64,000 bases of DNA from a virus. The stretch is from IMG/VR virus record IMGVR_UViG_3300045988_079583, positions 50,885 to 114,884 of that record. One strand, given 5' to 3'. Both the position numbers and the translations under genes were made by a program. Under the pieces are notes generated by a model. The model had not been told where the DNA came from, did not search any database, and was given only the letters and a program-made list of their open reading frames with translations. Positions 24,624-64,000 of this stretch are shown here, in pieces; the first letter of the stretch is position 1; each line of letters begins with the position of its first letter.

Positions 24624-24638
24624 AATAATTAATTTTAG

Positions 24639-26197: not shown

Positions 26198-26278
26198 TTC
26201 CGATTAAAGGATTTGAACCCCTGACCTCCCGCTGATGTTTTGGATGCGGACGCTCTAACCAGACTGAGCTAAATCGGA
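26198..26278 (-). tRNA. tRNA-like gene with canonical acceptor, D and T arms but a 13-nt anticodon loop (ATCCAAAACATCA); anticodon unassignable
   Basis: acceptor TCCGATT/AATCGGA, D arm GCTC/GAGC, stem TCCGC/GCGGG flanking a 13-nt loop, T arm AGGGG-TTCAAAT-CCTTT. Confidence 0.35.
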
Positions 26279-30071: not shown

Positions 30072-30390
30072 TTTACTATGATTTGCTCTTCAGGTTTTAA
30101 CTTAGCTGGAGCATCAGAATGTAATTTACCACATCTTACACACCAACAAACTCCAAATGAATTTTCTCTCACTTTACATCTGCCTTTCTCACAGATTTTA
30201 ACTACTTTTCTATAATTCTTCTTATCCATAATTATATAATTTAGAAATACAGCCTTACTACCCCTATGTTCCTAGTTATTCTTTAGCTAGCTTTAGATTA
30301 TTACTAGGTAATACCGCAACGGATTTATTCAGCTGACTTTACCGCCTCTTGGTATGCAAGGCTAGGTCTCCCTAGCGAAGCTGTATTTAG

Positions 30391-30462
30391 TTGGGCTACC
30401 AGGACTCGAACCTGGACTCTCAGAACCAAAATCTGATGTGACTACCATTACACCATAGCCCA
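30391..30462 (-). tRNA. tRNA-Gln(UUG)
   Basis: U1-A72, D region TGGTGTAATGGTAG, anticodon stem TCAGA/TCTGA, loop TTTTGGT, 4-nt variable loop. Confidence 0.8.
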
Positions 30463-36852: not shown

Positions 36853-36870
36853 AATGTATTGAAATTAGTG

Positions 36871-36954
36871 TGGGATTGGGAGGACTCGAACCTCCAGTCT
36901 CAAAAGAGAGCAGATTTACAGTCTGCGCGGCTACCAATTACCGGTTACAATCCC
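36871..36954 (-). tRNA. tRNA-Tyr(GUA), type II
   Basis: anticodon stem GCAGA/TCTGC, loop CTGTAAA, long variable arm. Confidence 0.7.
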
Positions 36955-42494: not shown

Positions 42495-42782
42495 GTAACG
42501 GTTGTTCTTATCTTGGGAGTAGGAGACCTAAGTCTCCCAGTATGCACAATTGTTTCTCAACAACCTGCACCACTATGTACGATAAAAGAAGATGAATTAT
42601 CCTGTGCCTACAATCATTTAAGATTGTCTTCGATTGTTAGTACAATCTCACAATACTTTGCCTTATCTCACGATAAGACACCTCTATTCATAAGAGATGC
42701 TCTGCATTAGTCTCAGGGCGTACCCATTATAATCTTTAACTGCAACAGAGTCTACAAGTAGTTGTAGTCCTCAAATACCAAG

Positions 42783-42853
42783 TTCCCCATTCTGGACTCG
42801 AACCAGAATCTCCTTCTTTAGAGGAAGGCGCAATAGCATTATACTAATGGGGA
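42783..42853 (-). tRNA. amber suppressor tRNA, anticodon CUA, tRNA-Gln-like (copy 1)
   Basis: acceptor TCCCCAT/ATGGGGA (U1-A72), anticodon stem CCTTC/GAAGG, loop CTCTAAA (anticodon CUA reads UAG), 4-nt variable loop, T arm TCTGG-TTCGAGT-CCAGA. Confidence 0.65.
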
Positions 42854-44699: not shown

Positions 44700-45107
44700 A
44701 TGATTACAGACTTAGAAACTTTGTTAAATTAGGATGAGTTTAAAGAACTCGTTAAAGCAATTAATTAGAATCAAGAGTTTTATTGTTCAAAAAAAGGACT
44801 CACCATTAAATCAGAGTCTACTGATGATTCTCTATTCTTATTAATATCCTATGATAGATAGGAAGAAGAAAGTTGTTTAGCGAACAAGGAAGCAGATACA
44901 TTCCAAAAATATCTAGAATCTTTAGATGATGATTTATTTGTAGGAGTATGTGAATATTTGGGAGAAGATAATATTCATAGAATACAAGCATGTTTAGAGA
45001 GTGGTAAACTAGAAACAGTAAGAAGTGGGATTGCTAAGTTTAGAGAAGCTCTATCAAAATTAGTTAATCAACAAATTGAATATTTAAAATCATTGCTAAA
45101 TGTATGA
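44700..45107 (+). CDS. hypothetical protein with 3 in-frame TAG codons
   Basis: hand translation MITDLETLLN(TAG)DEFKELVKAIN(TAG)NQEF...LKSLLNV-TGA. Confidence 0.4.
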
Positions 45108-45240
45108 ACAAATAGCTCAAATAAGAATACTTCTTGCTAACTTGAATACTACTATGCAAGCATTATTCCAAGAAAATGAATAGCTAAAGAAAGAACTAGA
45201 GAGACTAACAGAAGAAAACAAATCTCTAAAGGAGAAATAA
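45100..45240 (+). CDS. small coiled-coil peptide with 1 in-frame TAG
   Basis: MYEQIAQIRILLANLNTTMQALFQENE(TAG)LKKELERLTEENKSLKEK-TAA; overlaps previous gene (ATGTATGA). Confidence 0.35.
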
Positions 45241-45244
45241 ATAC

Positions 45245-45316
45245 TGCCCTATGGTGTAATGGTCAGCACAGATGACTCTAAATCATTTAGTCTGGGTTCG
45301 AATCCTAGTAGGGCAA
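45245..45316 (+). tRNA. amber suppressor tRNA, anticodon CUA, tRNA-Gln-like (copy 2)
   Basis: TGCCCTA-TG-GTGT-AATGGTCA-GCAC-A-GATGA-CTCTAAA-TCATT-TAGT-CTGGG-TTCGAAT-CCTAG-TAGGGCA-A; U1-A72 and D region nearly identical to tRNA-Gln(UUG) at 30391-30462. Confidence 0.75.
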
Positions 45317-45333
45317 CTCCAAAATTAATAGCT

Positions 45334-45561
45334 ATGATAAAATTAAATGAGAATTATGCAGTAACTCCAACTGGAGCTAAAACCCTCATTATTGAAGAGG
45401 GAGATGATTGGAATAAAGTTTGTGATAAGGTAGTTGGATGTAGGTTCGATTACATATTTATACCTCAAGAATTTGAGAATCAAGCCTGCTACTTTCTTCC
45501 ACAAATAACAGTTCAAGGAAAGCAGATAGGTAAAATATGTACTTATAAAGTAGTAAAATGA
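45334..45561 (+). CDS. hypothetical protein
   Basis: ATG at 45334 downstream of tRNA; track ORF 45259-45561 overlaps tRNA in its first part. Confidence 0.45.
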   Translation: MIKLNENYAVTPTGAKTLIIEEGDDWNKVCDKVVGCRFDYIFIPQEFENQACYFLPQITVQGKQIGKICTYKVVK

Positions 45562-45872
45562 AGCAATGCGCAGTTGTATTGAATGGTAATGATGTTATCA
45601 AGGTTTCCAACTTAAAAAGGAAATATGATAAAATAAAGAATAACCCTAATATGAAAATATTAGAGGAATGTGATATGGATATGTTAGATGAAAAATACAG
45701 CTACTGGAATAGAACTTTAAATAGAAATCCAGAAGAAGAGAAAAAAGAGGAGTCTAAATTACACCACTTTAGAAATCCCAAAACAGGGTGGTTAATAACT
45801 AGCATCTATCCAGACTTGGAAGATTGTAAGAATTATATAAAAGACTGGAGGGATTATGAAAGAATTGATTGA
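45558..45872 (+). CDS. hypothetical protein
   Basis: 104-aa ORF. Confidence 0.45.
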   Translation: MKQCAVVLNGNDVIKVSNLKRKYDKIKNNPNMKILEECDMDMLDEKYSYWNRTLNRNPEEEKKEESKLHHFRNPKTGWLITSIYPDLEDCKNYIKDWRDYERID

Positions 45873-46035
45873 GAGGTATCACGAACTTACTAATCCGAAG
45901 GTAGAATCTTTAGCAAGGGTTACATTAGTACTTATTGAAACCATTATTGAAGATATTGAAGAGAACGGAAGACAGAATGAACAATGGTTTCTGGATTACT
46001 TAGATAGACTAAATGAACTAAGTGTAACGCATTAA
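45856..46035 (+). CDS. hypothetical protein (59 aa)
   Basis: hand-found ORF MKELIERYHELTNPK... filling gap. Confidence 0.3.
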   Translation: MKELIERYHELTNPKVESLARVTLVLIETIIEDIEENGRQNEQWFLDYLDRLNELSVTH

Positions 46036-46037
46036 AT

Positions 46038-46277
46038 ATGTGGGATAGGGAATTTAAGTTTGAAGTCCTAATTAATGGACAATTATTAAATATGGTAAAG
46101 GCTAGTTATTTGGAAAGCATTTTAAAAAGCCTTCCGGAAAATAAATCCTTACTAATTGATATATGGAATGTAGTTGATAACTCCGTTAGAAATATAATCA
46201 AGAACGGACTATATAAAGATACCACAGTAGAAAAAGCTATAATTGATAATACATTTAAAGGATATGATAGACTTTAA
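46038..46277 (+). CDS. hypothetical protein
   Basis: 79-aa ORF. Confidence 0.4.
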   Translation: MWDREFKFEVLINGQLLNMVKASYLESILKSLPENKSLLIDIWNVVDNSVRNIIKNGLYKDTTVEKAIIDNTFKGYDRL

Positions 46278-46470
46278 AAAGACATTAACAAATTTACATG
46301 ATGAATTTCCAGAATTTGATTTGGATACATTATTCAAAATACTAGATGCTATAGTAGAAACTTATACTCCTACAATAAATATTCCAAGTAATATTAGACA
46401 ACCATCGGATAAACCTTGGTGGAATGATATAAATAGAATCACTTGTACTTATAATGCGAAAGTTAAATAA
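46243..46470 (+). CDS. hypothetical protein
   Basis: 75-aa ORF. Confidence 0.4.
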   Translation: MIIHLKDMIDFKKTLTNLHDEFPEFDLDTLFKILDAIVETYTPTINIPSNIRQPSDKPWWNDINRITCTYNAKVK

Positions 46471-46507
46471 AAATAGGCGAACCTAATCTCTAGGCTCGCC
46501 TATTTTG

Positions 46508-46699
46508 TTATATGATATAATACCAATCAGTTCTCTCCATAACTCCTTTTTCTCGGAGCTATTTATTATCCAAATGATAATCCCCATTTCTAAAGTTCAA
46601 TTCCTATTTATTATAATCCCAATAAAAATATCCCTTCCAGCCTGGAAGTAGTAGAGTACGACCAGTAGCTGCATGTAAAGTTGCTTTGTTATAGTCCAT
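46508..46699 (-). CDS. hypothetical protein with 2 in-frame TAG (63 aa)
   Basis: hand translation MDYNKATLHAATGRTLLLPGWKGYFYWDYNK(TAG)... Confidence 0.25.
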
Positions 46700-46774
46700 G
46701 TTACTTTTTAAATATAAATAGTAAATACAGATATATTCTCAATACAATCTCTTTAATGCACTTAATAATGTTTT

Positions 46775-47116
46775 TCATCGTTTCTTAGTTTTAATAAATC
46801 CATAATTTCCTTTCTTTAATCTAGTAGTAGGAATCCATCCATTATCTAATATAGACCTATGCCCTCCTGGTTTATGTATCTTAGCTCCGTCTTCGTGTTT
46901 CCATTTAGAAGCATTTCTAGCAAAATTAGCTCGCTTCTTCTAAAGAGGAGTAGCTTTAGGATTATTTAATACCTTTGTAGCGTGCTCTTGCACTGATTCT
47001 CCTGCAGCTTTAGCCGAGGCTGTAAATTTGCCTCTGTTCTCTTTCTTAATATGAATGCCTGATCCATTCTTGAAAATAGGACATCCAAATGTTGTAATTT
47101 TTCTACTGTTAGACAT
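46775..47116 (-). CDS. hypothetical basic protein with 1 in-frame TAG (113 aa)
   Basis: hand translation MSNSRKITTFGCPIFKNGSGIHIKKENRGKF...PL(TAG)KKRANFARNASKW...TKKR-TGA. Confidence 0.35.
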
Positions 47117-47230
47117 TTTTAATATAATGTATTATTTATTGATTTGTGTCTTACAAAGAATATTAATATACTTGAAAAGTATCAAATAAATATAGATAAA
47201 TGTGATAAATGATTAAATGAATTATGACTA

Positions 47231-48145
47231 ATGGACAAAAGTAAAATTACAAAACAAAATGGGAACATAGCTTTCGAGGAGGAGGCTCATATTTATTATG
47301 ATGTTACAGAGCCTGAACAGAAATTTATATCTGTGACGACTTTAATACATTCTTTCACCCAACCCTTTGACAAAGAGTTCTGGTCAGCCTATAAAGCATT
47401 AGAGAAACTTCTGTCTAAAGAAGATTGGGCTATTGAGAAAAAGTCATTACTGAATACTAAGAAATTTGACAAAGTTCTACTTGAGCTTCATAACATTACA
47501 GAAGACGAGTTTAATAAGGAACAACAAGCTATCTTAGATGCATGGGATTTAGAGAATAGGAACTCTTGCGAAAGAGGAACTAAGATTCATGCAGATTTAG
47601 AAAACTCTTTTTACAAAAAGAAAAAGAACATAGACCTTAGTAAATATCAAATAGGTGGTAAGTTTGAGTGTGTAAAAGACCATAATGAATTAGATTTAGA
47701 GAATGGGGTATATCCTGAGTATTTAATATCTAGAGTATCAGAAGATGGGAAACTTAGAATAGCTGGACAAATCGACTTGCTAGTTAAAAGAGGTAACAAG
47801 ATAATTATAGGAGACTGGAAAACCAATAAGAAGATAGAAACTAAGAGTTTCTTTAATTCTAAAACTAAATCATCAGTTAAGATGAAATATCCTCTAAATA
47901 ATTTAGATGATGTTAATTATTGGCATTATGCACTTCAATTAAGTACTTACGCCTGGATGATACAAAAAAAGAATCCGGAGTTTGAGATTGAAGATTTAGT
48001 ATTGGTTCACTTTGATCATAGTGATAATATGACAGTATATCATCTACCTTACCTAAAAGATGAAGTAATTAGAATGCTGTTGTTTTATAAAAAAGAATCT
48101 GTACTAGCTGAAAACAAAAGAAAACGTCAACGTATTGAATATTAA
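47231..48145 (+). CDS. PD-(D/E)xK family nuclease (RecB/Cas4/lambda-exonuclease-like)
   Basis: GQIDLLVKRGNKIIIGDWK (D...D/ExK) and YALQLSTYAWM (QxxxY) motifs. Confidence 0.55.
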   Translation: MDKSKITKQNGNIAFEEEAHIYYDVTEPEQKFISVTTLIHSFTQPFDKEFWSAYKALEKLLSKEDWAIEKKSLLNTKKFDKVLLELHNITEDEFNKEQQAILDAWDLENRNSCERGTKIHADLENSFYKKKKNIDLSKYQIGGKFECVKDHNELDLENGVYPEYLISRVSEDGKLRIAGQIDLLVKRGNKIIIGDWKTNKKIETKSFFNSKTKSSVKMKYPLNNLDDVNYWHYALQLSTYAWMIQKKNPEFEIEDLVLVHFDHSDNMTVYHLPYLKDEVIRMLLFYKKESVLAENKRKRQRIEY

Positions 48146-48147
48146 TT

Positions 48148-48363
48148 ATGACATTAGAAGAAATTGAAGAACGGTGGAAAATATGTAGACGATGTCCTAT
48201 ATGCGACCAAGATAATGGATTATGTAATGGAAATTTATATCTAAATCCAAAAAATAATGATATAAGTATAGGACCAAAAGAAGGTTATATAAAAGGATGC
48301 GGATGTCTACTAGAGAAGAAGATTCCAAACGAGAAAAAACATTGTCCTGCAGGGAAATGGTAA
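48148..48363 (+). CDS. small Cys-rich (zinc-ribbon-like) protein
   Basis: CRRCPICDQDNGLC...GCGCLLEKKIPNEKKHCPAGKW. Confidence 0.4.
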   Translation: MTLEEIEERWKICRRCPICDQDNGLCNGNLYLNPKNNDISIGPKEGYIKGCGCLLEKKIPNEKKHCPAGKW

Positions 48364-48680
48364 TGTACGGAACTCCCGTACTGTATAGACCTGATAAGGC
48401 TTACGTACTTACTTATCAGGAAACAAAAGAAGAAAATAAAGAAGATATGACAGAAAAATGGATTAAGGCAATATTTACTAAGCCTCTAACAATATTAAAG
48501 AGTATATATTTTAATATATTTGGAATAAATCAAGATTTAGCAACCAAGAGATTAAAGATTTGTAATACTTGTCCTCACAAGTTATATACTTCTGTTGGAG
48601 AAGTATGTGAGGAATGTGGTTGTATATTAGAGAATAAAACTAGAATAGAAGATGAACATTGTGATTTATGTAAATGGTAA
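48357..48680 (+). CDS. small Cys-rich protein, paralog of upstream gene
   Basis: C-terminus ICNTCPHKLY...CEECGCILENKTRIEDEHCDLCKW parallels previous ORF; start taken at first ATG after upstream stop. Confidence 0.4.
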   Translation: MVMYGTPVLYRPDKAYVLTYQETKEENKEDMTEKWIKAIFTKPLTILKSIYFNIFGINQDLATKRLKICNTCPHKLYTSVGEVCEECGCILENKTRIEDEHCDLCKW

Positions 48681-48688
48681 AATGAATT

Positions 48689-49414
48689 ATGGAAAATTTA
48701 AGAACAGAATTAAACAGTAACGAGAAACTAGCCTTATCTTTGACCGGAATGGAAGGAACAGGAGAACACTTTATTTTAAATGGTGAAGCTGCAGATAAGA
48801 CATTACTTAGAGAGAAACAAGAAAGATTTAATACAGCGGTAGATGAAATAGAAGATAAATTCTCAAAACATAATAAGGCTTTAGAGGATTACGCTAATTC
48901 ATTATCAGAAGATATGAATGGTGTAGAGATTATGCCTATGTATGGATATGCTCTTATCAAGCCGTTTGAACAGAACCCATTCCAAAAAATTAAGACTACT
49001 AAATCAGGATTAATTACAGACTTAGGAGGGTTTGCTCCAACATACAAGTCTAACGAGACTGGAGAAATTGAGGAAGAACAACAGTTTATCAAGGTAGGTA
49101 CTGTAGTAGAGGTAGGTCACAAGTGTGAGTTCTTAAAGCCTGGTGATATTGTATTCTATACTATAGCTAGTGAATGTATGGTTCCATTTTACAAACTAGG
49201 ATTCGTAGTAGTTAATGAGAATAGAATCATGGCTGTAGTTAATGAGAAACTAACTGAAAGAAGAGACCAAATTAAGCAATCTCAAGACTGTATAAATGTA
49301 GATATAGATAAGATCCCAAAAGAGCTTGGAGATAGCTTACCTGAGAGAATAAAGAATTGGATAGAATACAAAAAGATAGGAATTAATTTACTTAGAGAAG
49401 ATGGAAACAATTGA
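48689..49414 (+). CDS. hypothetical protein (C-terminal half weakly GroES/gp31-like)
   Basis: 241-aa ORF; beta-rich C-terminal region with VKVGTVVEVG...GDIVFY pattern. Confidence 0.4.
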   Translation: MENLRTELNSNEKLALSLTGMEGTGEHFILNGEAADKTLLREKQERFNTAVDEIEDKFSKHNKALEDYANSLSEDMNGVEIMPMYGYALIKPFEQNPFQKIKTTKSGLITDLGGFAPTYKSNETGEIEEEQQFIKVGTVVEVGHKCEFLKPGDIVFYTIASECMVPFYKLGFVVVNENRIMAVVNEKLTERRDQIKQSQDCINVDIDKIPKELGDSLPERIKNWIEYKKIGINLLREDGNN

Positions 49415-49624
49415 TGAGAAAGTTTATTTCAAACCTGGGGATTGTGTTACTTTACGGTAGTGTAAGGTAATGCATTCTCCAGTAATGCTTGTTCTGAGAA
49501 GAGAATCAGCATTATTTAAAGATAACCAGGGATTGCGCGGACTTAGATGTAGATGGTTTACTGATTCTGGACTGATGCAAGAAGCAGTATTTAATACAAA
49601 AGACTTAATTAAAGTAGAAGAATA

Positions 49625-50839
49625 ATGGCGAAAATACAATTTGATCCAGAGTTAATGTAGCATATCAAGACTATATATGGAGACGCAGAGTTAGACGGAA
49701 GAACTTTACAACAGTTGCATTAGACTTGGCAAAGTAATCCGAACTCTATTAGAAATACTGCATAGTAGAAGAAAAGAAGTGCTGTGCCAGCTATACAACA
49801 AAAACCTATATTAGGATTAAAGCTGTCTACTCCTACTATTCCTAAGAAAATAAATGCACCTTAGCAACAAATTCAAAACGACGACTTAAGAGGAGTCTAG
49901 GGGTTTGGTACGGCATTTAGAGAAGCCAGAAAGAGAGGACTAACTCAATTCAAATGGGGGAAAGGAGTGTATGGAACATAGTTAGCTAATGGAAAGAAAG
50001 CAACAGTAGAGGTAGGAACTCCAGTAATGAATAATCCCTATGTTACATATAGTCAAGACGGAAAAAGAGCTACTACGTACCAAAATCAAGTAGACTAGGA
50101 AACTGGAGAGCATACTGGAACTATCCAAGAACAATGGATAAAGCCGCCTACAACTAATATGTATGGGCAGAAACTAACTCCAGAATAGCTCAAAAATTAG
50201 AGAAGTTGGGAACATATACCAAAGGCAACTGCTAGATAGCAACGAGTTAAATATCAACAAGGAGGAGCAATGGCTAATTAGGAAGAATTACAAAAAGCAT
50301 TTATGGCATACTTAATACAGGATGCCGCAGCACAAGGAATACAATTACAATCTGAGTAGGATTTAGAACAATATGCTCAGCAATTAGGAGAAGACGGAAT
50401 TAAAGCCAAATACCAGGAATTTATGCAAAAAATGCAAGGTGGGGTTATGGCTAGATTAGGAGCTAAGCTTGAGTACTATAAAAAATTAAAAGGAGTTTGC
50501 CCAGAAGGGGAAGAGCTTGTTTATTTTAAACAAGGAGGGAGAATATGTAAAGCCTGCCAGAAAGCTTAGAAAGGTGCCAAGGTAAAAGGTAACGAGGTAG
50601 ACAAATTTAAGAAAGGAAGAGCACAGTATAAGAAAGATATGAAATCAGCGAAAGATGAAGCTTCCAGAGATTCTATATCTATCAATAAGTATAATGATTA
50701 GGAAACCATGTCTAATAAAGGACATAAAGGAAACTTCCAAAAGGGAAAATGGGTTCCTGATAGAAAGCAATATACTAAAAAGGATGCTTGTGGCTCTAAA
50801 ATGAAAGTAAGCAAGTGTGGCTCTAAAATGAAGAAGTAA
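49625..50839 (+). CDS. hypothetical protein, first gene of TAG-recoded structural module (404 aa, many in-frame TAG)
   Basis: single frame open from ATG 49625 to TAA 50837-50839 if TAG is read through; Gln-rich; no TAA/TGA in frame. Confidence 0.5.
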
Positions 50840-50866
50840 GAAAAGATTGTCGAATGTTAATGATTA

Positions 50867-51433
50867 ATGATTATGAATGTATTTAACTATAACACTTTAA
50901 CTAAATAGTTAGAAATAAATGAACCAGAGATTCTTCTAGTTAAAGAGTTCAAAGCTTTACTACAAAGAGATAAATCTGTGGAAAAGGATAGAGCAATTAG
51001 AGAACTATCATACATTTATTTAGCTATTGATTGGAAGAGTCCGTATAGCTAGTACTCTGAATATGAAAGGCACGATGAAGCAATTAATGATTCTGGATTA
51101 ACAGAATCAGAATTTAATGATCCGATATTTAGGGAAGCATGTAGAAAATATAGAGCATTATAGGACTCAAATAAATCAATTAAATTATTAGAAGCTGCTA
51201 GAAGAGCTGCTGACTAGTTTATTGATTACTTCGATACTATTGTAGACTTAAATGAACGTGACACTAATGGAAAGCCAGTATTCTCTGCTGAGAAAGTAAT
51301 GAAGGAAATGGCTAGCCTTCATAAAGTTCACGAAGAATTAATTACATTAGAAGATGAGGTTAAAAAAGAACTTACTGAATAGTCTACCGTTAGAGGAGGG
51401 GCTACAGATGGTTTTGATCCTGGAGAATTTTAA
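50867..51433 (+). CDS. hypothetical protein upstream of terminase (possible small terminase subunit), TAG-recoded
   Basis: 188 aa with several in-frame TAG; position immediately 5' of terL. Confidence 0.35.
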
Positions 51434-51435
51434 TT

Positions 51436-53796
51436 ATGCCAAGAAAGAAAAAGATATTACCTGATGAACTATAGACTATAGTAGATTAGGTAAGAGAAAA
51501 AGAACATAAAGAAGATGCTGTAGAGGCAAGAGAGCTAGTATAGAAAATAAGAGAAGAAAGGGTCAAAAGTGCAGACTATTGGGATGTCAAGAAAGGAGAC
51601 AAGATAGATGTTTTTGACCCTACTTTGTCTTATGAGATAACTGGCTATAGACCTATTGATGAAACGCATGGTTTGGACTTTAATCCCGAATGGTTCACCG
51701 AAACCAGAGAAGTATACAGAAAGACTGGGAAGTATTGTCCCTACTTAAAAGACAGTAAGAGATACAATGAATTTTGGAAAGAGTAGTACAGAAGATGTAA
51801 ATATGGAATGACAGTTAATGGTTATACTATTACTGGAGATAACTATTTCTTCTTAAATTTCTATTAGCTTCCTATTATTGATGATAATAAAGCATCCGGT
51901 GAAGGAACTAATAGTGACTTCCCTATATTCTTTGCATCCCATTACATGTTCTTCCATTACTTACAAATGGCTAGAGTACTACATAGACATGCAGCTTTAA
52001 TGAAGGCTCGTTCAATCGGATTCTCAGAAATAAATGCCTCACTATCCGCTCGTATGTATTCTGTAATTAGAAGAAGTAGAGTAATGATTACTTGCTTTAA
52101 TGATACCTTCCTTAAAGGTACATTTAGTAAGTTTGATAATGCTCTAACATTTTTAAATACTTGCACAGGTGGAGGATTCTTTAAGCTTCGTCTAATTGAC
52201 CAGGATTTAAGAAAGAAGTCTGGTAAGTAGGTTAAAGTAAACGGATAGTTTGAAGATGTTGGATTTAAATCAGAAGTAGTAGGAATAAATGGAGCTAAAC
52301 CATCTAATATTCGTGGAGACCGTGTTGACTTATTAATATATGATGAAGCAGGGTCTTGGCCAGGATTAGATACTGCTGTGGTACAAGGACAAGAACTTTG
52401 TGAAGTCTAGGGTAAGCCTCGTGGAACAATGTTGTTTGGAGGTACTGGTGGTGATATGGGTGCTCCATTAGCAGGTCTTAAAAAGATTTACTATAATCCA
52501 AAAGCTTACAAAGTTCTTCCCTTTAGACATAATTATACTCAAGATGGGACTACTATTGAGAGTGGATTCTTTATTCCATATTTTGTACAGTCTTTGAACT
52601 CCGAATACATGGATCATAGAGGTGTATGTAATACCGTAGAATATAAGAAGTATCTGTAGGAAGAAAGAGATAATCTATTAGCAGTACCCGATGACTATTT
52701 AAAGAAGTGTGCTGAACGTTGTTGGAATGCAGAAGAGGCCTTCAATCTAGAAGGTGTTAACAAGTTTAACAAAATTCTTATTTCTGATCAATTAGCTAAT
52801 ATAAGACTAAAGAAAATAGGTCCCAGACCAGAATGTGGTTATATAGATTACTTCTATAAAAATAATAAACACACTGCTGATAACATTGATGGATTTAAGT
52901 GGATTCCTAATACTAAGGGAAAGGTAAAGATTCTGGAACATCCAGTATGGTCTGACCTATATAAGGAGTAGATGGATAAACTTAGATAGGAAGCAGAGGA
53001 AAGAGGAGAGGAATTTGAAGCACCTGTATATAAAGAAATGCATAATCTTTATATTGCAGGAATAGACGGTATTGATATAGGAGCTAATTAGACCTCGAAG
53101 GAAACTAAAGATCCTTCTGACTTCTGTATAACTATTAAGAGAAGGGCATTTGGTATGAGTGAGCCATAGTATGTAGCAATGTATAAGGACAGACCTGGAG
53201 ACATTCGAGAGGCTTACAAAATAGCTATGTGTTTACTTAGATACTACAACTGTAAGGTAAATATAGAAGCAACTCGTGTTGGTATGATTACCTGGGCTAG
53301 AGAAAAGAAATGTTTGAATTACTTTATGAAACGTCCTAGAGCTACTCTTACTGATGTTAAAAATGGAACTACTAAATAGTATGGAACTCCAGCTACTAAA
53401 ACTATTATAGAACAACACACTGATCTAACTGCTGCGTTTGTGGAAGATTATTGTCATACTATATGGTTTGAAGAAATGTTGGAATAGCTTACTGGATATA
53501 ATGACGAGAATAAAGGTAAGTTCGATATTATAGCAGCTATGGGTATGACAGAATTAGCAGATGAAGAGTTGTCTGGAAGATAGCCTATAGTTGTGGAAAA
53601 AGAAGTTGAATTGTTCAGGGATTTTGGTTATTATTACGATGAGAGAGGAATAAAAAGATTTGGAGTTATACCAACTAGAGAAACTCCAGAATTAAATATG
53701 CAAGACGACGAATACGATGACCCATACAGAATTGAAACAAGTGATCCTAGAGTATATGAGAGACTTATACCAAATGGAATATATAGGCGGACTTGA
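51436..53796 (+). CDS. terL: terminase large subunit, TAG-recoded (786 aa, about 18 in-frame TAG)
   Basis: Walker B-like VDLLIYDEAG; nuclease motif YIAGIDGIDIGAN...DPSDFCITI; ends TGA; track shows only fragments (51946-52230, 53179-53379, 53593-53796). Confidence 0.7.
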
Positions 53797-54054
53797 GATT
53801 GAGGATTTGAATCCAGTTGGTTACAAAATATCTTTTAACTTTGACAGGTCTGAGATGCCATTAGTAATCATAGCTGATTTACCCGATGATGAATTTCTGC
53901 CTTTTATTAAAGAAGAATTAAGAAGTAGGAAGTTATAGAGAGTTAAGTATTATAACGCCACTAAGCTTCCTCCAGAACAACATAATACATGTTATGAAAG
54001 AGAAAGAATTGATAGACAAAACAAACGAGGCTATTGCGGAACTTGTGTATGATA
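53774..54054 (+). CDS. possible small overlapping ORF with 1 TAG
   Basis: extends track ORF 53717-53938 through TAG to TGA; overlaps both terL end and portal start, may be spurious. Confidence 0.2.
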
Positions 54055-56168
54055 AATATGAGCTTTAGAAAGCTTATAATTATTATAATGGTAAAAGAGA
54101 TCCAGAATAGTTTCGCTATCTTGAAGAGAATTTTGGAATAGGCAGTCCTACATCAGTAGAATTTACACCACTACTTAAGAAGCATGTAGATGCTTTAGTA
54201 GGGGAATATCTAGGAACTCCAATACTCCCGAAAGTCTCTTGCAAAGATTCAGATACTATCAGTAATATAACCAGAGAAAAATAGCTAGAGATAACTAAAG
54301 GAATAGTTAAGTTTTTAAAAGATCACTTAAGTAATGCTATCTTAAGCTTTATTGACGGAAAAGATATTACTGATAAAGCTGTAAAGACTCAGCTAGATAA
54401 GGTTATATAGGATATTGATTAGTCATTCATTTCTCAGTATGAAATTGCTGCGCAGAACATTATTCACTACCTAATGCAATCTAGGGAAACTGATCTTATT
54501 ACTAAGTTGCGGTAGTTATTAACTGACTTACTAATTACTGGATACACATTCTTTAGAGTAAAGTCTTCTTTCTCCGGAACTAATGTGGAGATAGAGGTTC
54601 TTAACCCGTTAAATACGTTTGTTGATAGAAATCCAGAATCTCCATATGTCAAGAAATCATATAGAGTTGTTATTAGAAAATGGATGAGTAAAAGCCAAAT
54701 ACTAGCTAAGTATGGTAAAGAAATATCTAGAGAAGACTTAAAGAGGTTAAAAGATGAATGGAGAGCAGATGATTCTGCTGCTGTATACAGAAGAGTTTAT
54801 GGAGATGTTTGTACAGTGGTTAATGAAGATCAAAATCATGAGACCATTCCTGGGTATCCAGATAATGAATATAGTGCTCATAGATTTTAGTTAATTCCGG
54901 TCTACGATGTAGAGTGGATAGAGACTGATGATGATTTCAAAATGCAGAGATACAATACTATAAGGATAGGAGAGGAAATCTATATTCTTAGAGGATTAGA
55001 CAAGACTGCAATGAGGTCTAAAGACGATCCTAACTCTTGTTCATTATCAGTAAATGGAGTTTATTTTCTAAATCGTTCTCAGTAGCCATATTCTTTAATA
55101 CTTAAGTGTGCACATCTACAGGATAGATATGACTTACTTAACTATTACAGAGACAACTTGATAGCTAATAGTGGAACCTCAGGAGTTATTATGGATATGT
55201 CATTACTTCCTACTAACTTAGGAGTACATTGGCCAGAAAGAGTATAGAAATGGCTAGCTTATAAAAAAGCTGGTATTCAGTGGGTTGATACTACTTAGGA
55301 GGGTAGAAATGACAATGGAAACGCTCCTTTAAATACTATCTTTAATGGATTTGATGACACCCTTAAAGCGTAGGCTGTATAGGCTATTGAGTTAGCTATT
55401 CAATCAGTAGAATAGACTACATCATCTATAACTGGAGTATTTAGGGAAAGACTTAATGGAATAGAGACTCATGATGCTGTAACTAATATTAAGCAAGGAG
55501 TCGCTAACTCTTATATAGTAACTAAACACTATTTCCAACAAATGGACTTGATAACTTGTGAAATATTATTAGATAGTCTTAATTAGGCTAAAGTAACTTA
55601 CAAGAAAGGGTTAACTGGAACTATTATATTGGGAGATAAGTATTAGTAGATATTTACTGCCCTTCCTGAATATTTCACAATGACTGATTTTGACATTCAT
55701 ATAACCTCCAGCACTGAAGTTATGGAAGATTTATAGACTATTAAAGCTATGATTCCGGAGTTCCTTAAGAGTTAGCAAATGGATGCTGGTATAGTTTTTG
55801 AAGCATTAACAGCTAAGAGTTTGACAGACTTAAAGTACAAGGTTAAAAAAGCTATGCAGGTTTAGAAAGAAGAGAACAATCAATTACAATAGTTGTAGTA
55901 GAAGTTGGAAGAAACTTCATAGCAAGCACAACAACTACAATAGGAATTGGAGAAAGCTTAGTAGAAAATAGAAAGGCTAGACGAACAAAAACTTGGACTA
56001 GAACAGTAGAAGATGCAACTAGAGTATAAGGTTAATTGGCTTAAAGCTCAGTCTGATTCTACTTACAAAGATAGACAAATGGATATTGAAGAGAAGAGAA
56101 CTGAAATAGAGTTAGCATAGCTTCATGACGGAAATCCATATAACGATAAAGTAAGACAAATACATTAA
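53994..56168 (+). CDS. portal protein, TAG-recoded (724 aa)
   Basis: position after terL; portal-like N-terminal region (AYNYYNGK...), size; C-terminal Gln-rich coiled coil generated by TAG codons. Confidence 0.55.
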
Positions 56169-56169
56169 T

Positions 56170-57039
56170 ATGGCTACAGCAGGTACAATAGTATATAATA
56201 AAGATTAGCAACAAATATATCCCATTTCTCATGCAGAGGTGGTAATTAGTAATGCTTCTGGAAGTAAGTCAGACGTGGAAGACAACCTTATAAAATTATG
56301 GAAAAAGGTCTCAGAATTAAGTGGAGACTAGGAAGCAGCTAGTAATATCATGGTAGTAGTTACTTATTGTAAAACAAATACCAGAGATGAATCTGAAGTA
56401 AGAAAGTTATCATCATGGAGTGATATTTTTGAACTACCAGACTCAGAAAGACCATATGTTTGGAAGAAAACTTTATATACATATAAAGGAGACACAGCTA
56501 AACTTAATGAGATTTACGAAATTGTTGCTACAGATATTGCTGAAAAAATTCAGAATATCTATATTGCAAGATCAACTGGGGTTGCTCCAGTTATTACTTA
56601 TCCAATACTAAAGGATGGATATGGAGATCCTATATTAGACTCTGAAGGAAATACTTAGGAAGATTTGACTGCCTTTGACAATAAATTACCAGAAGGCTGG
56701 TCAGAAACTCCAGTTAGTATTGGTCCAGCTACTCCATATGTATTTATATCAACACGTAAGAGAGTAGAAGGATTATGGAAAAGATATTCTGAACCAGCTC
56801 AATACGGTAGGTGGGCATTTGACAGTTAGTTAGAGTTACGATATACCATTACTTCTGGAGATAAACCAGCTGTTAATACTACAAGTGACGATCCTGGAAG
56901 TTAGTGGTCTAGCGATACTCCAGATAATTTTACTGGAAAAATGTGGATGATTACTGCAACATCAGTAAACGGAGTATTGAATAGTGATGAAAATAACGTT
57001 AGATGGCACGGTCCTCATTTGATGTCAATTATACAATAA
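56170..57039 (+). CDS. hypothetical structural-module protein, TAG-recoded (289 aa)
   Basis: open from ATG 56170 to TAA 57037-57039 with TAG read-through. Confidence 0.45.
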
Positions 57040-57770
57040 TGGAATTTAGTATTGATATACATACCCAGATTACTGGGGAAATAACTATTGAAGACTTCTC
57101 TAAAGAATATGGATAGTATATTGATGAAGATTTAGAAGTAGTAACTTCTTACGACTCTTATAAGTATAGTGAGAGTGCTACTCTAAATACTATCATCAAG
57201 GTAAGTATAGGGGATGCCACACTAATAGATGTCCTTTTAAATGACCATACAGAAGATTTAGATTCATGTACATTTAAAGTAAAAGAGGATGGATATTATG
57301 TGGTAGATCATATAATACTTCCTAATATGAAGTGGTATGAAAATTCATCTGATGAATATAAGGAATACTACGAAACTATCTATGTTACAGATGGGGAGAA
57401 ACTATATAAAGAAGTAGAAGGAGAGTTAGAAGAGTGTACAGTAAAGGAAATTCTAGAAAGAAACATAGAAGGCACTACTATCAAGAAATGTAAGGTCGAT
57501 GTATTCTTTACTGGGAATTTACAATAGTGCTATATTAATTATTGTAAAAAATTATTTGATGGTCTCCTAAATAAATGTGTTACCAATGAACATGAGGCAG
57601 ATATTTTTGCCAGAGATTTTATTTGGATGACTCTCAACATTATAGATTATTTAATAGGCTTTAAACAATTCATGGAAGCTGAAAGGTTACTAGCAATGTT
57701 CCGCACTTGTGGAGGATTCTGTAATACTCGCTATCATGGACATAAACATATAAGTTGTGGATGCTCTTAA
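57039..57770 (+). CDS. hypothetical structural-module protein, TAG-recoded (243 aa)
   Basis: TAATG overlap with previous gene; ends TAA. Confidence 0.45.
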
Positions 57771-57925
57771 AAGAAAGGCTATTAAAAGGTATGAAGAGTT
57801 TCTTGGAAGAATTAAGAAAGGATATAGACCAGATTATCAAGATATTTTGAATTTAATCTGTTTTATTAATCTACCTGTAAAACTAGATAATCACGAATTT
57901 ATTAAATAGCAACTATTAAATCATA

Positions 57926-59515
57926 ATGATACAGCCTATTTACACTTCGGTAAGCAATGCTGATATAAAGCCTTGTGGAAAGAAAGGACATTTAATAAAA
58001 AGTGAGCCTATACCACTTCTAAGAGATAATTACTTAGGAGAATATAGAACAGAACTAGAAAGAGCTAAGGTTAGAAAAAACTTAGGAATTGCTGATGAGT
58101 AGAGTCTTCTTTGGGGAAATATTAGTGGAACCATAGAGGCTTAGAAAGACTTGGTTTAGTATATTGAACAAAAATGGACATATACTAGCGATGTTGCAGA
58201 AAATATTAACACCGTAAAAGATGCATTAGACTATGCATTATTTTTTATTAGTTAGTATGAGGCTAATACTGAGGAAATAGAAGAGATAAAGGTTGATATA
58301 AGTAATATTAGGACTAGTATTTAGGTATTAGGAGAAGATCTGAAAAGAGAGATTGATACTAATAGGGAAGGACTAAATAACTTATCTTAGGATATAATCG
58401 AAATTAATTAGGCAATATCAGACCTCAACACTGCTATAGAAAATATAGATGTTGATAAGAACATTCTTAATTGGATTAAAAACAACCTTTAGAACTCTAA
58501 GACTGTAGAGATAAAGGAGGATAATACTATAGAAGTCATTCTTTCTAAGTAGGATAATAATGCTATTCATTTAATCGAATAGGAATTACCTCCTACAGAA
58601 GAAGGAGAGGAGCCTTCTACTATAACCCTTCCAGGAATTTATGTAAAGAATCTAGAACCTTAGTTAGAAGAAGCTTAGAAATCTATAGGAGAAGTATAGA
58701 AAGCTCAAGAAGAGACTAATGAAAAGGTTAGCACTAATAGCGAGAGTATTACAAATATCTAGACTAGTCTAGAAACTATAGCTACCTATTAGACAGAACT
58801 TCCTGATGATACAACTTCTACTGTTATAGAAGGTACTACCGTTGAAAAATTAAAAGGGAAACCATTTAATGAAATCATAGATACTTTACTATTCCCAACA
58901 GTAGTTAGAGATTTAATATATCCATAGTTGTATTATAGCTTTGCTTCCCAAATTGTGGAAGTAGGAACTGCGCTACTAACTCCAACCTTAACTTTCGTAA
59001 AAAATGATGCAGGAGAAGAAACTGACAGAGAAGAAGTCATTACTTATAACGGTTCTCCTATAGAGTCTGTTACATATGATTCTATTGGGATTTATACTCA
59101 TTCTGGTACAGTGAATTATGCTGCTGGAGAATACTTAGTAAACAATAAGGGAGAAGTTACAGATAAAAGGGTGGAAGCTGGTTCTATATCAGCAACTGCA
59201 CAAGTAACAGCTACTTATCCTTGGTATTCTGGAAATACTGATGGATTGATAAAATAGTCCCTAGTTCCATTTAATTAGGCTTCTGGCACTATTACATTCT
59301 CATTAAGTGGTAAGGCTATTATAAAATTACCAGGAAGTAATACTCAGCTAAATTCCTTCACAGTAGATGGAGGATTGGGATATTTGAATGTCGATTTAAA
59401 TGGTTGGGAAGCTTCTACTGAACAAATAAATGGATTCCCATATAAAGTATGGACTAAGAAGGATACCTACTCTTCAGCACTGCCTCACCAAATTAACTTT
59501 ATTCTATCACAGTAA
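57926..59515 (+). CDS. tail fibre-like protein, TAG-recoded (529 aa)
   Basis: long Thr/Asn/Glu-rich protein with coiled-coil segments, many in-frame TAG; ends TAA. Confidence 0.45.
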
Positions 59516-61383
59516 TGGCATTTAAATATACAGGTGATGCTACCCTAGGTGTTGGTTTAACCGTAGAAACTCCGAAGCCTCTGGATAATAGAACAGTAGT
59601 TGATAACCTAGAGGAGCTATATTCTATTCCAGAGAGATATGCTTATTAGGGCATGACCGTATCTAATATAGATAACGGAAATATTTATATGCTTATTGAT
59701 AAGTCTAAGATTAAATATAAAGAAGGATGGAAAGCATCTTATGAATCTATCTAGATAATAGCTTGTACAGAAGCTGAATATAAAGAATGGTCTGCTAATA
59801 CTACAGAAGATTTTAAACCAATAGATGAGAATAAAACATATCTTCACGCTGAAACATATTATTATATATATGAGGACAGCCTAGACGATAATTAGTTTTA
59901 CCTATCAGCAGAATGGGGTAAGAAAATAGAAGAGTAGTTAAAGTAGAAAGCTCTTAATACTACAGTTGTATAGATTAGAAATGATTTAGACTAGACTATT
60001 TAGAATCTTTCTAAGTATGCAACATTAGAAGAATTAACTGCTAATTATGCTCCTAAGGCGGACCTAGATTTGGAAGATCCAGAATCCCTTTTATCTAAAG
60101 CTCTATCTAACCACTATACTAAACAGGAAACTGATGATATATTTGTTACTAAGGAAAGTCTTAGAGGGGAAGGAATGGAAGGAGATGATTTCGTCTTTGT
60201 TACTAAAAAGCAATATGACGAAGATTAGTAGGCTATCTAGAGCGAATTAGATAAGACTTTAAAAGTAGATAGAGATGGTTCTCTGGAAAGCATTACTGTG
60301 GGACAGATAAAATCTCCAGTGATTGAAGGAGAGGATTAGCTAGTAGTAGATGTTAAATCAGACGGATTGTTTGTTGGAGAAGATCAATTTGCTATGATGT
60401 CTGATGTTCCAAATTTAGTTACATTAACTGAAGAGGAATATTTAAAACTGGTAGAAGATGGTACTCTAGAACCTGACACATACTATTATGTGTATGACGT
60501 GACAAATGACGCTAAAGTCTATATTACTAAAGAGTATCTAGATTAGAATTACCATACTACTCATTAGTATTAGTCATGGGTAGCTACCAACTACTACTCA
60601 AAATCTCAGATTGATGAGATCGTTGCTGGTTTACAGAAACTTGGGAGCTACGTCACTACAGAAGATATTAAAGCATATTACACTAGTCAATAGGTAGATG
60701 AAAAGTTTCTTACAAAAGAGAATGCTCAATCTACATACGCTACCTAGCAGTCGTTAACTGAGCTGTCTGGATAGATAGCAGAAGAGTATGTAACAAAGGA
60801 TAGTTTGAGAGGAGATTCTCCCGAGACTGGTGATGATGACTTTATATTTGTTACTTAGAATAAATATCAATAGGATTAGACTGCTGCTTCCCAAGAATTT
60901 AATACTAAGCTATTAAAATCAGAATAGATAGAAACTTCTGACATTACTATTTAGAAAATTGTAGAAAAAGAAGTACAATAGGGAACAACTGAAGAAAGTC
61001 CAGGAGATATAGTAATAGAGCAAACTATTGAAAGCTCTGTTAATCTTACTACTAAAGATAATAGGTTATTAGCATCAGGTAAACAAGTTGCTCTTATTGA
61101 AGAAGTTCCAAAATTAGTATGTTTACCCTAGACTGATTATGATAACCTAGTTGAAAATAATAAGACAGAGAACGATACTTATTACTGTACTTACGGAGAA
61201 AAAGATATATAGGATACAGGATATGTTAGAAGCGAATATCTTACTGAAAAGTACTATACTAAAGCAGAGGTAGAAGCTTTGATACAGGAAGCTGTAAGCG
61301 AATTATAGAAAAAGATAGATGCAATATAGCCTGGTTCGGGCAGTGCATCAGTAGATGAATCAAATGAACAATTAATATTTTAA
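59515..61383 (+). CDS. tail fibre-like protein, TAG-recoded (622 aa)
   Basis: TAATG overlap with previous; repetitive coiled-coil-like segments; ends TAA. Confidence 0.45.
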
Positions 61384-61388
61384 ACAAG

Positions 61389-61598
61389 ATGGGAACAATT
61401 TATATTGACGGACAGTTTAAAAGCTCTGCTAAGCCTGTAAAAGTTGTTGGTGGCAGTGTAGGAGGGTCTGGAGTAGATCCTGATACTCTCAAGAACTATG
61501 CTACTAAAGCAGAACTTCAGAAAGCTGTTGAGGACTTAACTGCTTCCATAGAAGGAATAGATCATGATGTAGTTGAAGAAACTTTAATAATATAGTAA
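61389..61598 (+). CDS. small Gly-rich protein
   Basis: track ORF 61389-61595 extended through terminal TAG to TAA. Confidence 0.35.
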
Positions 61599-61599
61599 T

Positions 61600-63420
61600 A
61601 TGGCAGCTATCAAATCTATAAAGGTAGGAGAAATTACATACGACTTAAAGGCTACTTATGATGGTTCTGGCAACAATATTGCCGAGACCTATGCTAAATC
61701 TAGTGCTATTCCGACTAAAGTATCATAGTTAAGTAATGATAAAAACTACCTAACAGAACATTAGGACATTAGTGGTTTAGCAACTAAAGAATAGATAGAC
61801 GAAAAAGTAGACAAGGAATTAGGAAAAGGTCTTTCTGAAGCTAATTATACTGAATTAGAAAAATAGAAGCTTTAGGGTGTAGAAGATGGTGCAAATAATT
61901 ATGAACACCCAACTACAGCGGGATATAAACATATTCCCTCTGGAGGAGCAGCAGGATAGATTTTAACTTACTCTAATGATGGTACTGCCCAATGGGCAGA
62001 TTCTAGCACTAAGTTAGATTAGCAATTCTAGGCACTTAATGAGGCTTGGGAAGAACTTCAGAAAGCTTAGCAAAATTTAGATAGCTAGGTAACAGCTATG
62101 ACTAGTAACGCAGATCTTTACTCCTATGGAGTAGAATGGGATATAACTGTATCTTCTCCGGTTCTCACCAGAATTGGAAACCCGTTACTGCATAAATCAC
62201 TTCCTATTCAATCTGCTTATAGAGGATGCGTAGCCAATGGAGCTAATATAAACTATTTCTTACATCCAGATAATTGGGCTTATAAGGAAGACGGTACTAC
62301 TCCCTCTGTGCTTGATGGTAGTGAAGGAACTGTTAGGGTTAACACTCCTAAGTTCTATGGTAAGTCTGGTTCCAATGGAAATAAAAGATGGGTAAGAGAA
62401 TCAACTGTTAAGATAGACGACTCTTGGGTTGAAATACCGGAATTGTTAATTGATGCATATAGAAGCACAGTTGATACTACAGTATCTGCAACTCCAAAGG
62501 CTGTATCAGTAGTTAATACTACTACAGCATTTAGAGGAGGTGGAAATAGAGCATAGTTCGACGAGTACTTGACTACTGAGCTGGAGACTAAAGATATTTT
62601 CAGAAGCGACTTAGGAAAACCAAGAACGAATATTTCCAGAGCCACAATGAGAACTTATGCTACAAACGCAGGTTCTGAATTACTATGTTACGAATATTAC
62701 AAGTGGATATTCTACTGGAATTATGTAATAGAATATGCTAACTTTAACTCTTAGGCTACATATGAGGCAGAGCTTACTGCTGATGGCTATCATTAGGGAG
62801 GTCTTGGACCCGGAGTTACGGATTGGAGTAATTCTGCCACAAGTTGGTCTGGATATAACGGAACTTATCCTCTTACTCCATGCGGTCACTGTAACGATAT
62901 TGGTAACTTCACAGGAGTTAAAGATTTAGTTATCCCAGGATGCACTGCAACAGATGGGACTAGTACAGTAGCTACTCATACCTTTAAAGTACCACGTTGG
63001 AGAGGCTTTGATAATCCATTTGGAGACATTTGGACAAACCTAGATGGAGTAGTTATTCAAAGAACTGCAGCGAATGAAATAAGTAGTGTATATACTACCA
63101 CAGATAAAGCGGAGTTTACTGACGTAATTGGCAACAAGACTATAGCCGGATACGAGGTAGCACAAGATGGATACATTAAAGAGTTTGATTTAGGAGAGAC
63201 AGCGGAGATTATACCATCTTCTTGTACTGGAGCTTCAATTACTACTTATATGTGTGACTACCACTATTGTAACGCTAGCTCTACAGCGCTTCGCACGCTG
63301 CGGGTGGGCGGCGGCGCGGGTGTTGGCGGCAGTGCGGGTCTCGGCTGTTTCGGTTCTAACTTTGGCGTCGGCCTTGCCGATTCCCATGTCGGGTTCAGAA
63401 CTCTAAATAGAGTATCTTAA
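61600..63420 (+). CDS. tail fibre / receptor-binding protein with C-terminal DGR variable region, TAG-recoded (606 aa)
   Basis: open from ATG 61600 to TAA 63418-63420 with TAG read-through; C-terminal 35 aa (VGGGAGVGGSAGLGCFGSNFGVGLADSHVGF) encoded by VR1. Confidence 0.6.
63298..63393 (+). repeat. DGR variable repeat 1 (VR1)
   Basis: 96 nt, GC-rich and nearly adenine-free, aligns with TR; about two dozen differences all at TR adenines. Confidence 0.7.
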
Positions 63421-63500
63421 GATATAAAAATATAAAAAATCAGTTTAGATAATAAACTGTAGGATATTACTTCTAAAAACCGTTGATTGGCAAAAAAGAA

Positions 63501-63596
63501 CTGCTAGTAGGCAGCAACGCGAATAATGGCAGCAATGCAGGTCTCAGCTATTTCAATTCTAACAATGACGTCAGCAATGCCAATTCCAATGTCGAG
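63501..63596 (+). repeat. DGR template repeat (TR)
   Basis: AAT/AGC/AAC-rich copy of the VR sequence located between target gene and RT gene. Confidence 0.7.
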
Positions 63597-63795
63597 TTAT
63601 TATATATTTAGAAACAATTTTAATTTTTACCTTATTTAGTTTGCTAAGTAATATCCTTGCCTCTAGGCAAAAAATAACGTAGTGTTGAATGAAGGGTGTT
63701 AGTAGGTTATCTCGAACGCTTCCGATGAAATATATAAAAAATTGAAACGTGTAGGACATTTGCACGAAAGGGTGTATGATTTATGGAACATCGAA

Positions 63796-64000
63796 ATGGC
63801 TGATGATAGAGCCAGAAAAAATAAATCTGTTCGATGTGGAATTAAGCAACATGATAAAAATAGATTAAAAGAAAATAAGGAATTATCCCACAAACTAAGG
63901 GACCTAATTTATCAGACGTCTGAATATAGTACTTTCATAATATATGAACCTAAGGAAAGATTAATCTTTAGACTTCCATACTATCCTGATAGAATAACTC
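63796..64000 (+). CDS. DGR-type reverse transcriptase, N-terminal part (continues beyond window)
   Basis: MADDRARKNKSVRCGIKQHDKNRLKENKELSHKLRDLIYQTSEYSTFIIYEPKERLIFRLPYYPDRIT... matches the conserved N-terminal segment of DGR RTs (cf. BPP-1 Brt ...FLVYEPKPRLISALEFKDRLVQHAL). Confidence 0.6.
   Translation, partial: MADDRARKNKSVRCGIKQHDKNRLKENKELSHKLRDLIYQTSEYSTFIIYEPKERLIFRLPYYPDRIT

Follow-up and report, generated by a model that had tools for sequence, protein, structure and literature searches.

TAG as a probable glutamine codon in the structural genes of a large crAss-like phage with two amber suppressor tRNAs

A question raised by a 64,000-nucleotide stretch of viral DNA (positions 50,885 to 114,884 of the IMG/VR virus record IMGVR_UViG_3300045988_079583, referred to here as the window) is how the phage translates its plus-strand packaging and tail genes, which the amber codon TAG breaks into fragments. 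The question has several parts: whether TAG is a sense codon in these genes, which amino acid it specifies, by what transfer RNA (tRNA) it is read and which other genes of the same phage depend on it. Our analyses make it very likely that this crAss-like phage follows genetic code 15, with glutamine encoded by TAG and two suppressor tRNAs derived from tRNA-Gln as its decoders, and that its early genes are TAG-free and its late genes TAG-rich. The labels early and late were assigned on the basis of gene function.

TAG codons in the packaging and tail genes

We measured how much of the interval 49470-64000 is covered by open reading frames (ORFs) of at least 100 amino acids, under the standard code and when a single stop codon is read through. 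Coverage is 0.10 under the standard code and rises to 0.92 with TAG read-through, compared with 0.12 and 0.48 for control read-through of TGA and TAA, respectively. Past approximately 49.4 kb, the plus strand has only four standard-code ORFs of this size, and the fragments 51946-52230, 53593-53796 and 62098-62556 are standard-code pieces that lie in frame with much longer genes; no standard-code ORF of comparable length was seen in another frame. An earlier reading of this DNA that was made from the letters alone (the sequence-only reading) had claimed that long plus-strand frames appear only if TAG is translated. The coverage values bear this out, and the coordinates that it gave for genes between 49625 and 63420 are exact for all nine of them.

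These nine plus-strand genes contain 130 in-frame TAG codons among their 4403 codons, with 2-28 in each gene. As had also been claimed, none has an in-frame TAA or TGA before its terminal stop, which is itself TAA or TGA. Given an off-frame rate of TAA plus TGA of 4.3-10.6% per codon, frames this free of the other two stops are not expected by chance (ln P of approximately -195). If counted among the glutamine codons, TAG makes up 30-83% of them per gene. Across the whole window, we identified 156 sense TAGs in 18 genes.

The block begins with two unknown genes (49625-50839, 15 TAGs, and 50867-51433, 5 TAGs), which are followed by the genes for TerL (51436-53796, 16 TAGs) and portal (53994-56168, 28 TAGs). 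Two further unknown genes (56170-57039, 5 TAGs, and 57003-57770, 2 TAGs) separate these from a tail-like gene (57926-59515, 18 TAGs), another unknown gene (59515-61383, 28 TAGs) and a tail protein gene (61600-63420, 13 TAGs). Profile searches were run on table 15 translations, with TAG as glutamine, a check that the sequence-only reading had itself proposed, and full-length TerL, portal and tail proteins were obtained. The 786-amino-acid TerL matches phrog_6681 (8e-63, profile positions 77-725 of 758), the 724-amino-acid portal matches phrog_6547 (2e-47) and the tail protein matches phrog_5302 (8e-80). All three matches run end to end, across TAG sites; TerL and portal are interrupted by TAG only and are full-length once TAG is sense.

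Read in the standard code, the region resembles a series of fragmented pseudogenes, as it would if the TAGs were true stops in a decayed or defective module, or if they arose through an assembly or sequencing artefact. We give this explanation a negligible probability, as the frames are broken by TAG alone and never by TAA or TGA, and the proteins are 73-90% identical to those of relatives that have many TAGs themselves, at both shared and different sites. Furthermore, thousands of database members have the gene, and suppressor tRNAs are present and conserved. The TAG recoding signal is genuine, and recoding of this kind is already well described for crAss-like phages.

The amino acid at TAG and the origin of the suppressor tRNAs

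Database homologs of the recoded proteins were called with an alternative code and we therefore used a codon-level comparison instead; these homologs have glutamine at most of the TAG columns, but the counts were set aside as circular, given that the proteins are themselves translated with TAG as glutamine. In the TerL and portal genes of four relatives, the codons that face TAG are mainly CAA and CAG, with GAA and AAA next in frequency. Across eleven recoded genes, the positions opposite window TAGs hold TAG in 118 cases and glutamine codons in 85, with at most 14 for any other residue, and window CAA and CAG codons face TAG in relatives about as often as glutamine codons. A BLOSUM-based codon predictor, restricted to sense codons and correct for 46 of 48 known codons on calibration, scores TAG at 408 for Q versus 197 for E. 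The glutamine content of TerL also agrees: CAA and CAG contribute 1.1% and TAG 2.0%, giving 3.2% in total, compared with 3.5-4.1% in standard-code TerLs.

The assignment of TAG to glutamine made in the sequence-only reading is thus supported by the codon alignments, the calibrated predictor and the TerL composition, which together point to genetic code 15, and glutamine at TAG has been proved by proteomics in other crAss-like phages (PMC9523058). Two of the arguments originally offered for it hold only in part. In a pair of paralogous GIY-YIG genes (see below), TAG in one does align with CAA in the other, but at only one of six discordant TAG columns, which makes for a thin argument. The coiled-coil motif ENE-TAG-LKKELERL is present, but in a gene at 45100-45240 that lies outside the range for which it was cited. 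The base at the +4 position is the same for sense TAG as for CAA and CAG, with no sign of context-dependent decoding.

The window encodes two amber suppressor tRNAs with a CUA anticodon, at 45245-45317 on the plus strand (ARAGORN and Rfam, 66 bits) and at 42782-42853 on the minus strand (ARAGORN and Rfam, 56.5 bits). The two genes flank a strand switch and a turning point in GC skew near 44 kb. Both tRNAs form an ordinary cloverleaf with U1-A72, A73 and an identical anticodon loop, CUCUAAA (A36-A37-A38). The view that both resemble the canonical tRNA-Gln(UUG) of the window (30390-30462, minus strand) is correct for the plus-strand suppressor, for which this tRNA is the closest relative (71% identity, the best of 28 window tRNAs). 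The plus-strand suppressor has G2-C71 and shares D-arm and acceptor features with tRNA-Gln(UUG); it is conserved at the same position in the related contigs L001-L004 and is also kept in L104. The minus-strand suppressor, a 29-nt stretch of which is matched exactly in 14 contigs, shows no resemblance to tRNA-Gln(UUG) by overall identity.

A different route leads from the minus-strand suppressor to glutamine. Located 28 nt upstream of this gene is RAGATH-14 (RF03145; 42882-43054, minus strand; Rfam 166 bits, cutoff 149), a structured RNA. In related IMG/VR contigs, the slot approximately 29 nt after RAGATH-14 is occupied by a tRNA(CUA) or, in L083, by a tRNA-Gln(CUG) (11530-11600, minus strand). 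The tRNA of L083 is identical at 67 of 71 positions to the CUA tRNAs of L063 (1138-1208) and L104 (2412-2482), and differs from them at position 36 of the anticodon, in a single compensated acceptor pair and in one base of the T stem. The minus-strand suppressor of the window is identical to the CUG tRNA at 51 of 72 positions, and its link to glutamine therefore runs via synteny and intermediate sequences. By sequence and synteny, both suppressors trace back to tRNA-Gln with the anticodon changed to CUA, the minus-strand lineage probably by a supE-like change from CUG.

In Escherichia coli, the amber suppressor supE (glnV44) is a tRNA-Gln in which the anticodon CUG has become CUA. The lineage linked to RAGATH-14 carries the same change at anticodon position 36, in addition to the differences in the acceptor pair and the T-stem base. 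Unlike supE, the suppressors described here are phage-encoded and serve genes with up to 28 TAGs, which need near-complete decoding and not partial suppression.

We consider it very improbable that TAG specifies another amino acid, such as glutamate, lysine or pyrrolysine. ARAGORN labels both suppressors 'tRNA-Pyl', the name that it gives to any CUA tRNA; GAA and AAA are next after the glutamine codons opposite TAG; and the TAG columns of distant standard-code TerLs carry a weak signal, with E (10) almost level with Q (11), which counts against glutamine. However, the distant TerLs are uninformative because TAG occupies variable positions, and E and K are normal substitution partners of Q. Opposite TAG, glutamine codons are at least six times as frequent as those for any other residue, the predictor score for Q is twice that for E, window CAA and CAG codons face TAG in relatives, both tRNAs trace to tRNA-Gln, and proteomics of related phages found Q (PMC9523058). 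For pyrrolysine in particular, the codons opposite TAG are 85 for glutamine versus 11 for lysine, the cloverleaves are glutamine-like and the window ORFs that were scanned contain no pyl-like domains.

Distribution of sense TAG and the timing of late genes

Which genes of the phage depend on the suppressors? Recoding had been described in the sequence-only reading as confined to the plus-strand structural module. We found instead nine further TAG-bearing genes outside 49625-63420, on both strands and with 26 TAGs between them. Four encode homing endonucleases on the minus strand. Two are of the GIY-YIG type: one at 13412-14047 (4 TAGs; PF01541, 2e-11), just 3' of tRNA-Leu(UAA), and one at 21335-21967 (4 TAGs; PF01541, 3e-13), just 3' of a transfer-messenger RNA (tmRNA). 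The others are HNH-like at 25277-25699 (2 TAGs; PF01844, 1e-4, just above the cutoff), 3' of tRNA-Asn, and HNH at 27789-28259 (8 TAGs; PF01844, 5e-6). With 18 TAGs and no in-frame TAA or TGA, these frames are recoded, not decayed, and a TGA-recoded intron endonuclease in Agate phages provides a precedent for a recoded homing endonuclease in an early region. Each of the four genes has a tRNA or tmRNA gene immediately upstream of it (tRNA-Leu at 14134, the tmRNA at 22039, tRNA-Asn at 25717 and tRNA-Leu at 28521), an arrangement that brings to mind the segB endonuclease in the tRNA cluster of phage T4.

The remaining five are small genes. Two conserved plus-strand genes, at 44700-45107 (135 amino acids, 3 TAGs) and 45100-45240 (46 amino acids, 1 TAG, the gene that holds the coiled-coil motif), lie directly upstream of the plus-strand suppressor, and their orthologs in L001, L003 and L004 have 2, 0 and 4 TAGs. 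Two small conserved minus-strand genes, at 46508-46699 (2 TAGs) and 46775-47116 (1 TAG), are 86-90% identical to their L004 orthologs. The fifth, a conserved plus-strand gene of 74 amino acids at 49401-49625 (1 TAG), is the first TAG-bearing gene of the block; its orthologs in L001, L003 and L004 are 71-99% identical and also contain TAGs. Recoding is concentrated in the structural genes, with the four endonuclease genes and these five small genes as exceptions, and what is recoded is set by gene class, not by strand or block.

The accompanying claim that the upstream plus-strand genes and all large minus-strand genes are TAG-free survives for the plus-strand run at 45259-49414 and for the minus-strand genes other than the four endonuclease genes. 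The plus-strand run, which includes a PD-(D/E)XK nuclease (47231-48145) and is interrupted by a short minus-strand insert, is also present in L003 and L004. The minus-strand block at 1-44322 is compatible with the standard code and comprises approximately 66 genes (including those for NAMPT, PRPP synthetase, SPFH and OmpA-like proteins), at least 26 tRNAs and the tmRNA. Apart from the endonuclease genes, it has no sense TAG. Its genes end in TAA (45), TGA (15) or TAG (6), and the six TAG stops are followed by a backup TAA or TGA after 0, 1, 3, 3, 6 and 19 codons; five of the six thus have one within six codons, compared with 33% in control genes. TAG stops closely backed by another stop have been reported in Zeta phages (PMC12386605). 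The 5' extensions that read-through would add to TAG-free genes look non-coding or overlap the upstream gene. As regards the tRNA inventory, Rfam detects two additional tRNA-like genes that ARAGORN misses (24245-24317 and 26198-26278, both minus strand), and the tRNA-Arg(ACG) at 24638-24712 and tRNA-Tyr at 36870-36954 called by ARAGORN are not among the Rfam matches.

TAG-free genes give way to TAG-rich ones at one and the same gene in the window, in L003 and in L004. A 17-bp terminator-like hairpin (46470-46506) lies between converging genes, one ending at 46470 on the plus strand and the other being the minus-strand gene at 46508-46699, and because of it the plus-strand genes between 44.7 and 63.4 kb probably belong to more than one transcription unit. 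A scan for sigma-70 promoters, a model that may not suit this phage and its host, gave no enrichment (37 versus 41.5 expected).

In the mechanism that we propose, the two phage-encoded suppressors, presumably charged by the host glutaminyl-tRNA synthetase (GlnRS), to judge by their ancestry and by the example of E. coli, would decode UAG as glutamine. Genes needed before suppression (metabolic, tRNA-region and nuclease genes) would avoid sense TAG and back up their TAG stops, and the packaging, tail and homing-endonuclease genes and a few small genes would yield full-length products only once the suppressor outcompetes release factor 1. Timing of the late genes by the suppressor is suggested by a published code-switch model (Borges et al., bioRxiv 10.1101/2021.08.26.457843; PMC7886860), in which early genes in the standard code precede the suppressor tRNA and structural genes written in the alternative code. 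The efficiency required would be high: for a gene with 28 TAGs, a full-length yield of 10% needs approximately 92% efficiency per codon.

Several observations weigh against this mechanism or against its parts. Among the larger ORFs scanned in the window, which covers 64 of approximately 190 kb, there is no release factor 2 (RF2), GlnRS or code-change protein. Total glutamine is 5.5% across the late genes versus 2.8% in the early genes, with TAG adding to CAA plus CAG and not taking their place. The 74-amino-acid gene at 49401-49625 shares 14 nt with the last TAG-free gene (48689-49414), which leaves no intergenic gap and hence no obvious promoter gap between the two classes. One suppressor stands first in a minus-strand unit that is presumed to be early and the other lies downstream of two TAG-bearing genes, a layout from which a simple timer, with the suppressor made late, does not follow. 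Separately, an ORF at 48297-48680 with a weak match to tRNA-synt_1g fell below the threshold and was rejected.

The same layout, in which the minus-strand tRNA and metabolic unit opens with one suppressor and the other has TAG-bearing genes upstream of it, favours a rival view in which TAG is sense but does not time late genes. The suppressors would then act early, causing read-through of the TAG stops of the host (as host shut-off or anti-defence) or hindering competing phages, and sense TAGs would accumulate where genes tolerate dependence on a suppressor. The presence of TAG-bearing genes on both strands, homing endonucleases included, fits this idea, as does a phage tmRNA with a tag ending in TGA, which could handle ribosomes that have run past host stops. 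CUA suppressors persist in some Zeta clades that show no recoding (PMC12386605), and an anti-host role has been raised before (PMC7886860). On the other hand, the distribution of TAG is sharply bimodal, with none in approximately 66 early genes compared with 2-8% of the codons of structural genes, and relatives have kept the boundary, which is what one would expect if early genes have to work before suppression. We therefore regard interference without timing as rather unlikely, although well within consideration; interference and timing are not mutually exclusive.

Phage affiliation, associated RNAs and significance

Megablast of the region at 49-64 kb against GenBank phages returned no match, and placement is therefore based on protein searches. 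TerL aligns with classified Crassvirales by tblastn at approximately 26% identity over approximately 80% of its length (E of approximately 1e-36), and the TerL and portal proteins are both homologous to those of crAss-like phages. The closest TerL records in the phage collection are from unclassified human-gut phage contigs (44-46% identity), and a large protein database holds thousands of TerL relatives at 72-87% identity, many from contigs of 180-195 kb. Zeta genomes are 145-192 kb in length and have many tRNAs, mobile endonucleases or inteins, and diversity-generating retroelements (DGRs). The 64-kb window has at least 28 tRNAs, four endonuclease genes and a DGR. One TerL relative, P0003, has 1131 amino acids with Hint and LAGLIDADG homing-endonuclease domains and is thus an intein-containing protein; the window TerL is uninterrupted. 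We conclude that the source of the window is a large crAss-like phage with features reported for the Zeta group, and a tentative placement in that group is consistent with the contig sizes of the relatives, the tRNA load, the endonucleases, the TerL intein of a relative and the DGR.

The DGR targets the last tail gene of the block (61600-63420). Its variable repeat (63298-63395) lies within the 3' end of this gene and its template repeat (63501-63598) is 203 nt downstream of the variable repeat; 25 of the 26 mismatches between the two are at adenines of the template. The N terminus of a reverse transcriptase (63796-64000, plus strand) runs off the end of the window and is 65% identical to an annotated reverse transcriptase of a crAss-like phage. 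Zeta crAss-like phages have been reported to carry DGRs on tail genes (PMC12386605). We considered a frameshift near the 3' end of the tail gene and rejected it: the gene ends as its ortholog does, and the similarity downstream is the template repeat.

RAGATH-14 is paired with a suppressor tRNA in all 13 of the testable related large-phage contigs (among L008-L021). Contigs of approximately 100 kb also have RAGATH-14, followed by a hairpin and no tRNA, which rules out a general RAGATH-14-tRNA unit. A search with a 15-base RAGATH-14 pattern gave mostly chance matches, which were filtered before use, and a literature search on RAGATH-14 found nothing. In several relatives, RAGATH-1 hammerhead and pistol ribozymes occur 0.2-2 kb from RAGATH-14 or the suppressor tRNA (L003, 654-740; L011, 11261-11330 and 12240-12308; L016, 4269-4337; L019, 589-657; L020, 1116-1185); the window has none of these ribozymes at the Rfam threshold.

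The phage tmRNA (22039-22556, minus strand; Rfam 56 bits, cutoff 47) is approximately 140 nt longer than the Rfam model. Read from the consensus resume position, it specifies the tag ATYSEVRMAA, with TGA and not TAG as the stop; the tag called by ARAGORN differs. The stop-codon recoding papers that we searched do not mention tmRNA. One could imagine an undescribed RNA-based code-change module in which a RAGATH-14-tRNA precursor sets the timing of the mature suppressor and the tmRNA clears ribosomes that have read through host TAG stops, but we consider such a module improbable.

How does the window compare with known systems? Translation of TAG as glutamine in late genes has been described for crAss-like phages, especially those of groups Beta, Delta and Zeta (Yutin et al. 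2021, PMC7886860), and the match to published gut-phage recoding drawn in the sequence-only reading is correct (PMC7886860, PMC9523058, bioRxiv 10.1101/2021.08.26.457843). Every feature that defines crAss-like phages recoded with code 15 and is open to in silico testing is present in the phage, and glutamine in homologs at TAG sites is clear at the codon level and weak in distant standard-code homologs. With the code-15 phages of the Zeta group, it shares TerL and portal genes interrupted by TAG only, CUA tRNAs, recoding mostly of the structural block, a separate standard-code block rich in tRNAs, numerous homing endonucleases, a tail-gene DGR and backed-up TAG stops. Nothing fundamental differs from the published Zeta-group phages (PMC7886860, PMC12386605); the two glutamine-derived suppressors that flank a strand switch, the linkage to RAGATH-14 and the phage tmRNA were not found in those two papers. 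Early genes in the standard code, a suppressor tRNA and later, recoded structural genes are also shared with the systems of Borges et al. and Peters et al. (PMC9523058). Unlike the systems of Borges et al., no 'code change module' of RF2 and aminoacyl-tRNA synthetase was seen in the 64-kb window; such accessory proteins occur in some lineages only and do not strictly define code-15 phages. The lysis genes, which are recoded preferentially in those systems, are located beyond the window.

Recoding of this kind is established knowledge for this phage group, and the window does not change the published picture in any fundamental way. The modest detail that it does add concerns the tracing of the suppressors to tRNA-Gln genes (in one case through a CUG and CUA ortholog pair), the recoding by gene class and the link to RAGATH-14, which gives an orphan structured RNA a testable context. 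In practice, the window needs table 15, as the TerL, portal and tail genes and four endonuclease genes are otherwise missed or fragmented. It is another clear case of one phage genome running two genetic codes.

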